64,000 nucleotides of DNA from Escherichia coli (GTDB lineage Bacteria; Pseudomonadota; Gammaproteobacteria; Enterobacterales; Enterobacteriaceae). Shown here piece after piece: positions 44,690 through 47,415 of the stretch (position 1 is the first letter of the stretch; every line of letters begins with the position of its first letter). Made by a program: the position numbers and the translations under genes. The stretch is taken from the NCBI RefSeq assembly GCF_024502345.1, contig NZ_JALDNN010000001.1. The stretch is one strand, 5' to 3'. The notes beneath the pieces were generated by a model. That model saw only the letters and a list, made by a program, of their open reading frames with translations, was not told the DNA's origin and searched no databases.

Positions 44690-45466
44690 ATGCTGATTCT
44701 TATTTCACCTGCGAAAACGCTTGATTACCAAAGCCCGTTGACCACCACGCGATATACACTGCCGGAGCTGTTAGACAATTCCCAGCAGTTGATCCATGAA
44801 GTGCGGAAACTGACGCCTCCGCAGATTAGCACGCTGATGCGTATCAGCGACAAACTGGCAGGTATCAACGCCGCTCGCTTTCATGACTGGCAGCCAGATT
44901 TCACGCCGGAGAATGCCCGCCAGGCGATTCTGGCGTTTAAAGGTGATGTCTACACCGGCTTGCAGGCCGAAACCTTCAGCGAAGACGATTTCGATTTTGC
45001 CCAACAGCATTTGCGAATGCTTTCCGGCTTGTATGGCGTACTGCGCCCACTCGATTTAATGCAGCCTTATCGTCTGGAAATGGGGATCCGTCTTGAGAAT
45101 GCCCGAGGGAAAGATCTGTATCAATTCTGGGGAGATATCATCACCAACAAGCTGAACGAGGCGCTCGCAGCACAAGGCGATAATGTGGTGATTAATCTGG
45201 CGTCAGATGAGTATTTTAAATCGGTGAAGCCGAAGAAATTGAATGCCGAGATTATCAAGCCGGTGTTCCTCGATGAGAAGAACGGCAAATTTAAGATAAT
45301 CAGCTTCTACGCTAAGAAAGCACGCGGTCTGATGAGTCGTTTCATTATTGAAAATCGGCTGACCAAACCAGAGCAACTGACTGGTTTTAATAGCGAAGGT
45401 TACTTCTTTGATGAAGCTTCCTCCAGCAATGGCGAACTGGTGTTTAAACGCTACGAGCAGCGTTAA
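44690..45466 (+). CDS. yaaA: Peroxide stress resistance protein YaaA, DUF328 (258 aa)
   Basis: Full-length ORF. Confidence 0.92.
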
Positions 45467-45478
45467 GTTTGTAGTCAA

Positions 45479-45590
45479 TGCCGGATGCGGCGTGAACGCC
45501 TTATCCGGCCTACAAAAGCATGCAGATTCAATATATTGCAGAATTCACGTAGGCCTGATAAGACGCGCCAGCGTCGCATCAGGCGCTGAA
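45479..45590. repeat. REP/BIME palindromic element cluster
   Basis: GCCGGATGCGGCGTGAACGCCTTATCCGGCCTAC and inverted GTAGGCCTGATAAGACGCGCCAGCGTCGCATCAGGC between yaaA and yaaX. Confidence 0.75.
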
Positions 45591-45618
45591 TGCCGGATTG
45601 TTACCCGGCATTTGTCAT

Positions 45619-45915
45619 TTAGCGGTGATGTTTGCCTGGACCATGACCGCCGTGATGATCATGATGAGCTTTCTTATGGTGACGCGGCGGTGGCGGCGGT
45701 CCGTGTGGGTGCCAGCGATTGCCTCGCCATTCATAATGTTGTTTCCACCAGCCGTGGTCGCGCCAGTGACCGCCATCCCAGTAATAGCCACGATTATCAC
45801 GATCGCCTATCTGTAATTTTACTGACGGGACTAACGTAATTTCCGCAGCCTGCGTTGCCATGGGAGCGACCAGAACCAGGGAAAGTGCGAGTACGATAGA
45901 TTGCATCTTTTTCAC
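45619..45915 (-). CDS. yaaX: Small secreted His/Trp/Gly/Pro-rich protein YaaX (98 aa)
   Basis: Signal peptide [23 protein letters not shown] followed by a low-complexity HWRG-rich mature region. Confidence 0.85.
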
Positions 45916-46072
45916 AGGTTACTCCTTTTATCATTGCCCGTTATGGGTCGATATCCGGAGATTACGCGATGAGAACGGCGGTTGTTATTCTCCGCAATCC
46001 TAATCTCTAAGTTACCGCATTTATTGAGAATTTCTCCTTTTTCCCTGTCGTTTCTCTCCATATTTTCTTCAC

Positions 46073-46110
46073 AAAAAAGCCGGGCTGCATAAAAGCAAAC
46101 CCGGCCTGAT
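46073..46110 (-). terminator. Intrinsic terminator of the thr operon
   Basis: Hairpin GCCGGG...CCCGGC followed by a T run on the thrC strand just after its stop. Confidence 0.7.
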
Positions 46111-46128
46111 TGAGATAATGAATAGATG

Positions 46129-47415
46129 TTACTGATGATTCATCATCAATTTACGCAACGCAGCAAAATCGGCGGGCAGATTATGCGAAAGCAAGGGTAA
46201 ATCGGCACGTTCTGCCAGCTCTTTTGGCAGATCCAACGTTTCACCGAGAATCGCTTCCACGCTCTCTTTAAATTTCGCCGGATGCGCGGTGCCGAGGAAC
46301 AAGCCATATTCGCCTGGATTCAACTGGTCACGCAGCGCACGATACGCTACGGCAGCGTGCGGCTCCGAGGTGTAGCCCAGTTCTTTTAACTCACGCATTG
46401 TCTGTTGCGTGGTTTCATCATCCACGGCTGCATAACCCAGCTCTTTCAGTTGCCAGATTTTGCGGCGGAACAACTCTTCCACACGCGGCCAGTTGTTCGG
46501 CTGACTCACGTCCATCGCGTTGGATAACGTCGCCTGAGTCGCTTTGGGTGACCACTGACCGTCATGCAGGAAACGTGGCACGGTATCGTTCACGTTGGTC
46601 GCAGCAATAAAACGTTTCACCGGCAGACCGAGTGACTTCGCCAGCAGACCCGCCGTCAAATCGCCGAAGTTTCCGCTTGGCACCGAGACAACCAGCTGGT
46701 TGCGCGCCTCCTGCGGCAGCTGCGCAACAGCTTCAAAGTAGTAGCAAATCTGCGCCAGCAAACGGCTGATGTTAATCGAGTTAGCCGAGTTTAACCCCAG
46801 CGCCACTTTCAGCTCTTCATCATCAAACGCCTGCTTCACCAGCGCCTGACAGGCATCGAAATCGCCGTCGATGGCAACAGTTTCGATATTGCCGCCCAAT
46901 GTACAGAACAGTTTTTCTTGCAGTGGACTGATTTTGCCTCGTGGATAGAGGATAACCACTTTCACATTCGGTAAACCGTAGAAAGCATGAGCCACTGCCG
47001 CTCCGGTATCACCGGAGGTCGCGGTCAGAATGGTCACTGGCTTATCGCCCGCAATATGGGTCAGCATTTGTGCCATAAAGCGACCGCCGAAATCTTTAAA
47101 TGCCAGCGTTGGCCCGTGGAACAATTCCAGACAACCGACATCGCTTTCAACATTGGCGACCGGAGCCGGGAAGGCAAACGCCGCGCGCACGCGCTCTTCC
47201 AGGATTTCCTGCGGGATTTCATCACCAATAAACGCCGAGAGGATCTTCGCACTGCGGGTGACAAAATCCAGCTTCAGCATCTCATCAATTTCAGTCAGGC
47301 TGAATTCCGGCAGGTCGTGCGGAAAAAACAGCCCCTGATTTTTGCCCAACCCCTGGGTTACGGCTTGCGCAAAGCTGACCTGCTCATTGTGATCTTTAAG
47401 ATTGTAGAGTTTCAT
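46129..47415 (-). CDS. thrC: Threonine synthase (428 aa)
   Basis: Full-length ORF; last gene of thrLABC. Confidence 0.97.
   Translation of the reverse strand: MKLYNLKDHNEQVSFAQAVTQGLGKNQGLFFPHDLPEFSLTEIDEMLKLDFVTRSAKILSAFIGDEIPQEILEERVRAAFAFPAPVANVESDVGCLELFHGPTLAFKDFGGRFMAQMLTHIAGDKPVTILTATSGDTGAAVAHAFYGLPNVKVVILYPRGKISPLQEKLFCTLGGNIETVAIDGDFDACQALVKQAFDDEELKVALGLNSANSINISRLLAQICYYFEAVAQLPQEARNQLVVSVPSGNFGDLTAGLLAKSLGLPVKRFIAATNVNDTVPRFLHDGQWSPKATQATLSNAMDVSQPNNWPRVEELFRRKIWQLKELGYAAVDDETTQQTMRELKELGYTSEPHAAVAYRALRDQLNPGEYGLFLGTAHPAKFKESVEAILGETLDLPKELAERADLPLLSHNLPADFAALRKLMMNHQ

Follow-up and report, generated by a model that had tools for sequence, protein, structure and literature searches.

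The locus considered here raises two linked questions: what does a small exported protein, built largely of His, Trp, Gly, Arg and Pro, do for Escherichia coli, and which part of it does the work? A sequence-only reading of the window, by which we mean the whole 64,000-nucleotide stretch of E. coli DNA analysed here, had named the gene yaaX and, from the composition of the mature protein as a whole, had suggested either periplasmic metal binding or intrinsic disorder.

The yaaX gene and its translation

The ORF list and its translation place a frame of 98 codons plus a TAA stop on the minus strand at 45619-45915. It opens with GTG, and a Shine-Dalgarno sequence, AAGGAG (45922-45927, minus strand), lies 6 nt 5' of this start codon, as the same string does in most yaaX orthologues. 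The DNA is 100% identical to several E. coli chromosomes, where it is annotated as yaaX, 'DUF2502 domain-containing protein', and the product shares 95 of its 98 residues (97%) with K-12 YaaX (b0005, NP_414546.1), the three substitutions being A21T, in the signal peptide, L70P and P84H. Residues 25-96 align with positions 1-89 of the 90 in the Pfam DUF2502 profile (PF10697) with a score of 52.3 bits, the cut-off being 27 (E = 6.7e-14), and all invariant columns of the module that follows the signal peptide (IGDRDxxGxYWDGxxWRDxxWW) are found in the window protein; NCBIfam and PADLOC hold no family model for YaaX. In the window the gene lies between thrC (46129-47415, minus strand) and yaaA (44690-45466, plus strand), the position of yaaX orthologues and not of the paralogue YpeC, and the YaaX-type N-terminus and tail likewise assign the protein to the YaaX orthologue group. 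The ORF is the known E. coli gene yaaX, correctly named from the sequence, and the 50-residue string quoted in that reading matches residues 49-98 exactly. Gene and family are already catalogued; function is not established, as had been remarked, and we found none in the literature searched.

Of 5426 complete E. coli genomes, 5424 hold the coding sequence as a single copy, and at least 5421 keep it intact. About a quarter of the copies (1388 of 5424) stand at 90-95% nucleotide identity to it, and this group is probably a second, more divergent tail allele such as ...PRHNKHHDQRNDHRGDHRPGPDKHHR, exemplified by locus L001 and protein P0007. When one genome per species was scanned across 100,044 species, 246 related stretches were obtained, the best 80 of which all belong to Enterobacteriaceae; the order thrC-yaaX-yaaA is kept in 70 of these 80 loci, and the remaining 10 are the YpeC-type paralogue. 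All 70 syntenic orthologues, from many genera, are intact ORFs whose indels preserve the frame. For the 45 codons that open the mature part, pN averages 0.12 and pS 0.69, giving pN/pS of 0.18 (2415 pairs). yaaX is a genuine core gene under purifying selection.

These observations bear directly on the possibility that the ORF is a chance or decaying frame with no functional protein, for which the low-complexity composition and the non-ATG start might be cited. The frame is nonetheless intact across E. coli and the 70 syntenic genomes, the substitution pattern is constrained, the Shine-Dalgarno sequence is strong and the Pfam family is matched. Moreover, according to a review, ribosome profiling and nascent-chain profiling (iNP) both reveal a proline-related pause within yaaX (PMC13410324), from which it follows that the ORF is translated; that it might not be was one of the refutations which the sequence-only reading had named for itself. 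The published pause fits the five consecutive proline codons of residues 73-77 (45685-45699, minus strand), a stretch of five prolines in E. coli, whose counterparts of three or more prolines are limited to Escherichia and Kluyvera-like orthologues. Conservation and published profiling together refute the chance-frame reading, which we regard as having practically no chance of being right.

The predicted exported protein: a Trp-rich module and a His-rich tail

Residues 1-23 (45847-45915, minus strand) have the sequence features of a Sec-type signal peptide, with MKK as n-region, a 17-residue h-region and TQA as c-region, and a predicted signal peptidase I cut before AEIT. A cleavage motif of the form small-x-A↓(A/S/E)E, with the arrow marking the cut, is kept in 70 of 70 orthologues (VQA↓AE, AQA↓AE, VHA↓AE and others), which bears out the description of a small protein with a classic signal peptide. 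Neither a lipobox Cys nor a twin-arginine motif occurs in YaaX, and since it has no Cys it is not a lipoprotein. We infer that YaaX is exported via Sec and predict a periplasmic location.

With the cut placed after TQA (residue 23), the mature part has 75 residues, of which 46 (61%) are accounted for by 14 His, 11 Gly, eight Pro, seven Arg and six Trp. His and Trp together make up 26.7% of it, against a maximum of 16% for other 75-residue stretches from ORFs of at least 200 residues in the 64-kb window, so that the mature protein is an outlier in composition within the window, as extreme as had been noted. It contains no Cys and few Met, and it is strongly hydrophilic, with GRAVY at -1.78 over the whole mature part and at -2.36 over its tail.

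This composition is not spread over one uniform stretch. When 20 proteins from different genera were aligned, 19-21 positions were invariant, all of them within mature residues 1-45: E25, L28, P30, V32, L34, Q35, I36, G37, D40 and G43 are among them, as are W46, D47, G48, W51, R52, D53, W57, Y61 and W68. By this alignment the conserved unit of YaaX is the N-terminal DUF2502 module (mature residues 1-47; residues 24-70 of the precursor, 45706-45846, minus strand), a segment of about 47 residues rich in Trp, Arg, Asp and Gly, and not the His-rich stretch. An EF-hand-like DxDxxG reading of GDRDxxG within it was set aside, as its fifth position is variable.

AlphaFold2 assigns residues 31-70 a pLDDT of 87-95. 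The model has short bridges at residues 39, 45-46 and 51-52, then a helix (54-60) and a hairpin formed by 61-64 and 67-70; confidence is low for the invariant N-terminal strand (residues 24-30). The models were built on shallow alignments of 20 and 25 sequences, with pTM of 0.41-0.46. On their basis the module is probably a compact folded unit, and a search of the PDB for a structural relative of the module returned no match. Pairs of Trp residues flank two tight turns, W46-DGGH-W51 and W63-RGNR-W68. Tryptophan zippers are beta-hairpins of designed peptides, and YaaX likewise has Trp pairs around Gly/Asn turns; compared with the zippers, only W-RGNR-W is predicted as a hairpin (61-64/67-70), whereas W-DGGH-W is modelled as short paired strands, and the likeness is an analogy drawn from the sequence pattern of YaaX and its DSSP string.

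The remaining residues, 71-98 (45622-45705, minus strand), form a low-complexity tail of His, Gly, Pro, Lys and Arg, with 10 His in 28 residues, that is predicted to be disordered from its low pLDDT (67, 49 and 46 for the last three 10-residue blocks in AlphaFold2). The earlier suggestion of disorder thus agrees with the prediction for these last ~28 residues, where pLDDT falls from 67 to below 50, and disagrees with that for residues 31-70, so that YaaX as a whole is predicted to be partly folded and partly disordered. Among the 70 orthologues the tails range from 23 to 51 residues and are not reliably alignable from about residue 71 on; their pooled composition is 28% His, 20% Asp, 14% Arg, 11% Pro and 10% Gly, with aliphatic residues nearly absent. 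Two consecutive His lie among the last four residues in 49 of the 70, often preceded by a motif of the PGP or GPD type. The tail, judged from these sequences, evolves fast in sequence and length while its composition is retained. Its calculated net charge in the window protein is about +4 at pH 7 and climbs to about +12 at pH 5, which makes responsiveness to protons as plausible as metal binding.

A tail of this kind invites the idea that YaaX is a largely disordered, hydrophilic stress protectant, similar to a hydrophilin or a chaperone, that acts by bulk physicochemical means. The hydropathy of the mature protein and the predicted disorder of the tail agree with it, as does a tail that seems to tolerate any sequence so long as composition is kept, and expression of the gene is stress-induced, with the annotation 'RpoS stress induced' in one study (PMC5105897). 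The core of the protein, with 19 invariant positions including five Trp and the low pN/pS given above, is not what a purely compositional function would lead one to expect, and it is predicted to be folded, with pLDDT above 87. We thus consider a protectant role of the whole protein rather improbable.

The wider family separates the two parts further. A profile of the module matched only 107 proteins among 1.84 billion cluster representatives, with Brenneria, Jeongeupia and a gammaproteobacterial MAG among the named distant members. Many of the distant relatives, from other Enterobacterales and a few other Proteobacteria, carry the module twice, in a pattern of the form IGDRDxRGxYWDGYDWRxPxWWxxHxGxxxGERNxRGxYWDGxRWRD..WW, with a signal peptide first and a low-complexity tail last; in the model of one two-module protein the bridge-then-helix pattern is likewise repeated twice (pLDDT 79-91). 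These proteins resemble YaaX in having a signal peptide, a PGVSxxIGDRD strand, a GxYWDGxxWRxxxWWxxH module and a hydrophilic low-complexity tail, and they differ from it in two respects. YaaX has one full module followed by a short remnant, YEWRGNRW, and its tail is His-rich, whereas theirs may be rich in Gln, Gly and Asn or may end in CPPGQAKKGxC; among the distant tails as a whole, some are Gln/Gly-rich, some are Asn/Thr/Lys-rich and some have the CPPGQAKKGxC ending. Since the distant members do not all have a His-rich tail, what the whole family shares is the Trp module; by these comparisons, the His-rich tail belongs to one lineage, the YaaX and YpeC proteins of Enterobacteriaceae. Jeongeupia is presumably a betaproteobacterium; it and the gammaproteobacterial MAG lie outside Enterobacterales, in lineages that to our knowledge lack Rcs; the existence of such rare members speaks against the account of YaaX that we favour below. 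The gene neighbourhoods of distant homologues (a ypeC-type gene beside mntH, a pheST-ihfA-btuCED setting and a lipoprotein cluster that adjoins a bufferin operon) are uninformative or at best suggestive.

The closest relative within E. coli is the paralogue ypeC (b2390), whose product is 59% identical to YaaX over 68 residues spanning the signal peptide and the module; 5425 of 5426 E. coli genomes carry ypeC. YpeC shares with YaaX the signal peptide and the same module, and its expression is strongly Rcs-dependent (PMC5343319, PMC5105897). It differs in its longer tail, rich in Gly, Arg, Trp and Tyr and ending in GHGHGHHH, and in its locus, yfeO-ypeC-mntH-nupC, where mntH is convergent with ypeC and not part of the same operon. 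The two promoters differ as well: a conserved MarA/SoxS box, which matches the MarA site of PMC5684230, lies 5' of ypeC loci and is absent at yaaX.

Upstream DNA and the Rcs response

The DNA 5' of yaaX contains a block that spans roughly positions -165 to -65 relative to the start codon (45980-46075, minus strand). In an alignment of 70 genomes its columns reach an identity of 0.8-0.95, above that of the coding sequence. It holds GnAG(A/G)AA repeats in phase, one about every 11 bp, together with the element GGAGAAATTCTCAA at 46024-46037, the near-invariant strings AATAAATGCGG, TAGGATTGC and GAGAATAAC, and a TAGGAT at 45997-46002. A 49-residue upstream ORF (45912-46061, minus strand) that overlaps the yaaX start was rejected as a candidate, not being conserved in other genera. 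RNAalifold returned 0 pairs for the block, and Rfam gave no match in it. With neither a conserved upstream ORF nor a consensus RNA structure, we read the block as candidate promoter DNA that may bind protein. That some 100 bp are more conserved than the coding sequence itself indicates dedicated regulation.

The canonical RcsB box, TN(G/A)GAN4TC(T/C)NA (PMC7913699), does not occur within 2 mismatches anywhere in the 213-bp thrC-yaaX spacer. The block does contain the conserved GGAGA-AAT-TCTCA, RcsB-like half-sites with a 3-nt spacer, one base short; the same search 5' of ypeC loci gave scattered 1-mismatch hits only. A scan of the yaaX strand of the spacer for sigma-70 promoters and terminators returned neither a promoter-like site nor a terminator, and by eye there are two weak promoter candidates, TAGGAT with an inverted repeat centred about 41 nt upstream and ATAACA-18-TAATCT. 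The scan missed the thr operon terminator, a GCCGGG...CCCGGC hairpin with a T-run between thrC and yaaX (about 46073-46107, minus strand) that is recognised by eye and conserved in the orthologue alignment, and just downstream of which the conserved block begins; the miss is apparently due to a loop that exceeds the 3-8 nt limit of the search. On the other side of the gene, the convergent yaaX/yaaA intergenic region 3' of yaaX (45467-45618, unstranded) carries REP/BIME palindromes, identified as inverted repeats at 45480-45509 and 45553-45584 and through Rfam, with ES036 above its gathering score at 45514-45556 and naRNA4 matches below threshold; such sequence occurs in tens of copies per E. 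coli genome.

Published transcriptomes place both yaaX and ypeC in the Rcs envelope-stress regulon. Overproduction of RcsB raised yaaX 1.9-fold according to the RcsB regulon table of PMC2731931, the supplement of which is without a yaaX entry, and colicin M raised it by a log2 value of 4.12 at the later time point, where it is listed among Rcs-regulated genes (PMC3599342). A LolCDE inhibitor induced yaaX 8-12-fold and ypeC 42-60-fold (PMC5105897), and ypeC fell 23.7-fold in an rcsB-disrupted O157:H7 strain (PMC5343319). In a Serratia gumB (igaA) mutant, the promoter of a yaaX-like DUF2502 gene rose by several orders of magnitude in a manner that required rcsB (PMC8470065); the Serratia DUF2502 protein described as yaaX-like is SMDB11_2817. 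As yaaX has no canonical RcsB box, RcsB may act on it by an indirect route, for instance through RpoS, to which the annotation in PMC5105897 points, or at a non-canonical site.

This regulation brings forward another possibility, that YaaX and YpeC modulate envelope-stress signalling by feedback, binding RcsF, IgaA or another sensor in the way that CpxP acts on CpxA. Both paralogues are among the strongly Rcs-induced predicted periplasmic proteins, and one may imagine the invariant N-terminal beta-strand joining the sheet of a partner. Rcs occurs in Enterobacterales, and it is there that the family is concentrated. A few family members, however, come from bacteria for which no Rcs system is known, and we found no interaction data in the literature searched. 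A role in feedback on the Rcs pathway or a related sensor is, in our judgement, very unlikely.

Possible metal binding and the proposed role of YaaX

Is YaaX, then, primarily a periplasmic metal protein, a buffer, chaperone or sensor of Zn, Ni, Cu or Co whose His-rich tail is the functional site? The His content of the tail speaks for it, as does the persistence of 28% His and 20% Asp on average in orthologue tails despite their turnover, together with the C-terminal His pair in 49 of 70 orthologues and the GHGHGHHH ending of YpeC tails. So, too, does some genomic and expression context: mntH is the neighbour of ypeC both in E. coli and in a distant relative, a bufferin operon adjoins one distant homologue, and yaaX is among the genes changed in cusS gain-of-function mutants. 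Bufferins are linked to copper stress.

Other observations speak against it. Conservation in YaaX is lowest in the His-rich region, and some distant DUF2502 tails are rich in Gln, Gly, Asn or Thr with few His; the sequence-only reading, which had derived a metal function from the whole His/Trp/Gly/Arg/Pro composition, is in this respect not upheld, since the conserved part is the Trp module. The absence of Cys and the scarcity of Met in the mature protein point in the same direction, as does the convergent arrangement of mntH and ypeC, which are not co-transcribed. The cusS result is ambiguous. In LB, yaaX is listed together with zraP, cusCFBA and hiuH among the genes changed in all four mutants (PMC10920338); the supplement gives gene names without the direction of change, and the adjacent thrLABC genes are in the same lists, so that read-through from thrC could account for the yaaX entry and is the simpler explanation. 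The control known for yaaX is that by Rcs, and we found no report, in the literature searched, of control by a metal-sensing regulator such as Zur, CueR, NikR or RcnR.

Comparison with established periplasmic proteins adds a likeness of type and no relationship. RcnB/YohN, ZraP and Spy are, like YaaX, small, exported and stress-induced, and by analogy with them its His-rich segments could bind divalent metals; there is, however, no sequence or profile relationship of YaaX to RcnB, ZraP or Spy. For RcnB, hhalign returned a probability of 1.3% over 4 columns and BLASTP an E-value of 0.39; the NCBIfam model of Spy gave 11.1 bits against a cut-off of 174 (E = 0.36), confined to residues 1-28, that is, to the signal peptide, and the Pfam LTXXQ family had no match in YaaX. 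Membership in the RcnB and CpxP/Spy/ZraP families was rejected on these grounds. The regulators differ as well, being RcnR, ZraSR, Cpx and Bae for RcnB, ZraP and Spy, as against Rcs for yaaX. On balance we hold a primary metal role to be unlikely, and unlikely, too, that the tail is a specific metal site. We note that any peptide with 14 His would take up Ni, Zn or Cu in vitro, independently of its function, and the metal-binding assay on the purified peptide that had been suggested earlier is therefore not discriminating.

The explanation that we favour, as a tentative one whose parts are taken jointly, is that YaaX is a stress-induced periplasmic binder in which the Trp module is the working part and the tail an accessory that binds cations or protons or serves as a solubiliser. 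After export, YaaX would act in the periplasm as a stress-induced binding protein through a module composed of the aromatic-clamped hairpins (W46-DGGH-W51 and W63-RGNR-W68) and the short helix, with the invariant amphipathic strand EITLVPxVKLQIG in front of them. The module might dock on a component of the envelope, either a glycan (peptidoglycan, LPS or colanic acid) or a protein, the latter perhaps by strand addition. The tail would then loosely bind protons or divalent transition metals, and such binding might tune solubility, localisation or local cation buffering. Two observations pull against this account: its fold comes from AlphaFold models of shallow alignments, and there is no canonical RcsB box upstream of the gene. 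A further one concerns the accessory status of the tail, as the steady presence of His and Asp in the tails of Enterobacteriaceae and the GHGHGHHH of YpeC could mean that the tail is more than an accessory.

One may go further and suppose that the DUF2502 module is an unrecognised, very small, Trp-clamped periplasmic fold, that it is a dedicated Rcs effector docking on a specific envelope target (peptidoglycan, LPS, colanic acid or a protein) and that the His-rich tail makes this docking respond to pH or metal. We regard this bolder proposal as doubtful. If it were true, YaaX and YpeC would form a redundant pair, and their double deletion would give an envelope phenotype.

The result is a modest step forward for a gene that is known and still uncharacterised, and no new kind of system. 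On the E. coli K-12 map yaaX is gene number five, and together YaaX and YpeC are strongly induced by envelope stress, conserved across Enterobacteriaceae and without a structural relative. The experimental focus shifts from the conspicuous His-rich tail to the 47-residue Trp module, with the two paralogues to be considered together, and what stands to be gained is a better account of the role of the Rcs regulon in the periplasm.

Conserved block and other features upstream of yaaX

On the minus strand, a conserved block of ~100 bp lies upstream of yaaX (window 45980-46075), with a column identity between genera of 0.8-0.95, higher than the conservation of the yaaX coding sequence itself. The block carries GnAG(A/G)AA repeats phased at ~11 bp, RcsB-like half-sites in GGAGAAATTCTCAA with a 3-nt spacer instead of a 4-nt one, and the further elements AATAAATGCGG, TAGGATTGC and GAGAATAAC.

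Closer to the gene, a 49-codon ORF on the same strand (45912-46061) ends in an overlap with the yaaX start codon (GTGA). Because neither its frame nor its sequence is kept outside Escherichia, a role as a coding uORF is unlikely. Some 20-35 nt ahead of the start codon (45935-45950 region; columns ~135-155 of our alignment A4) lies a short GCCC-loop-GGGC hairpin, which could be a 5'-UTR stem of yaaX. In some genera changes on both sides seem to preserve the pairing, such as GCCT...AGGC in the DUF2502 locus L077, and RNAalifold made no call for this hairpin upstream of yaaX.

Terminators and the 3' end of the yaaX mRNA

The thr operon terminator, GCCGGG...CCCGGC followed by a T-run (46073-46107, minus strand), was not picked up by our terminator scan, apparently because its loop exceeds the 3-8 nt limit of the scan. 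On the 3' side of yaaX, the convergent yaaA/yaaX spacer is occupied by REP/BIME palindromes (45467-45618, arms at 45480-45509 and 45553-45584). Since there is no intrinsic terminator past the yaaX stop codon, the REP hairpins may set the 3' end of the mRNA. Among Rfam families, ES036 (CssrF) passed its gathering score of 37.6 with a match of 38.8 bits at 45514-45556, and the two naRNA4 matches in the spacer were both below threshold.

Proline codons and distant DUF2502 genes

In E. coli, YaaX is probably a client of EF-P. This follows from five consecutive Pro codons within the gene (45685-45699, minus strand) taken together with a proline-related ribosome pause in yaaX cited by a review (PMC13410324). 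Because most other genera lack the five-proline run, it is not essential to the DUF2502 family.

In a gammaproteobacterial MAG (L088, 3537-5375), three genes for predicted lipoproteins, one of them BamE-like (E 2e-4), precede the DUF2502 gene on the same strand and form a four-gene cluster with it. This cluster, found also in L089, is oriented divergently to an ECF sigma/anti-sigma pair, beyond which lies a bufferin-type operon (BufA1, MbnB, HvfC, DoxX). The metagenomic contig L081 holds a tandem pair of 115-aa genes (258-605 and 710-1057); the second encodes a two-module DUF2502 protein, and the first, without a Pfam match, may be a diverged duplicate.

Promoters of the two paralogues

In ypeC-type loci (L055, L060, L061, L067, L069, L072-L074, L079, L080 and L090), a TTTAGCAAAAAATGC marbox is conserved at 2880-2900, some 110 nt ahead of the start codon, in agreement with a published MarA ChIP site (PMC5684230). 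The DUF2502 paralogues yaaX and ypeC thus differ in promoter architecture, though both are Rcs-induced.
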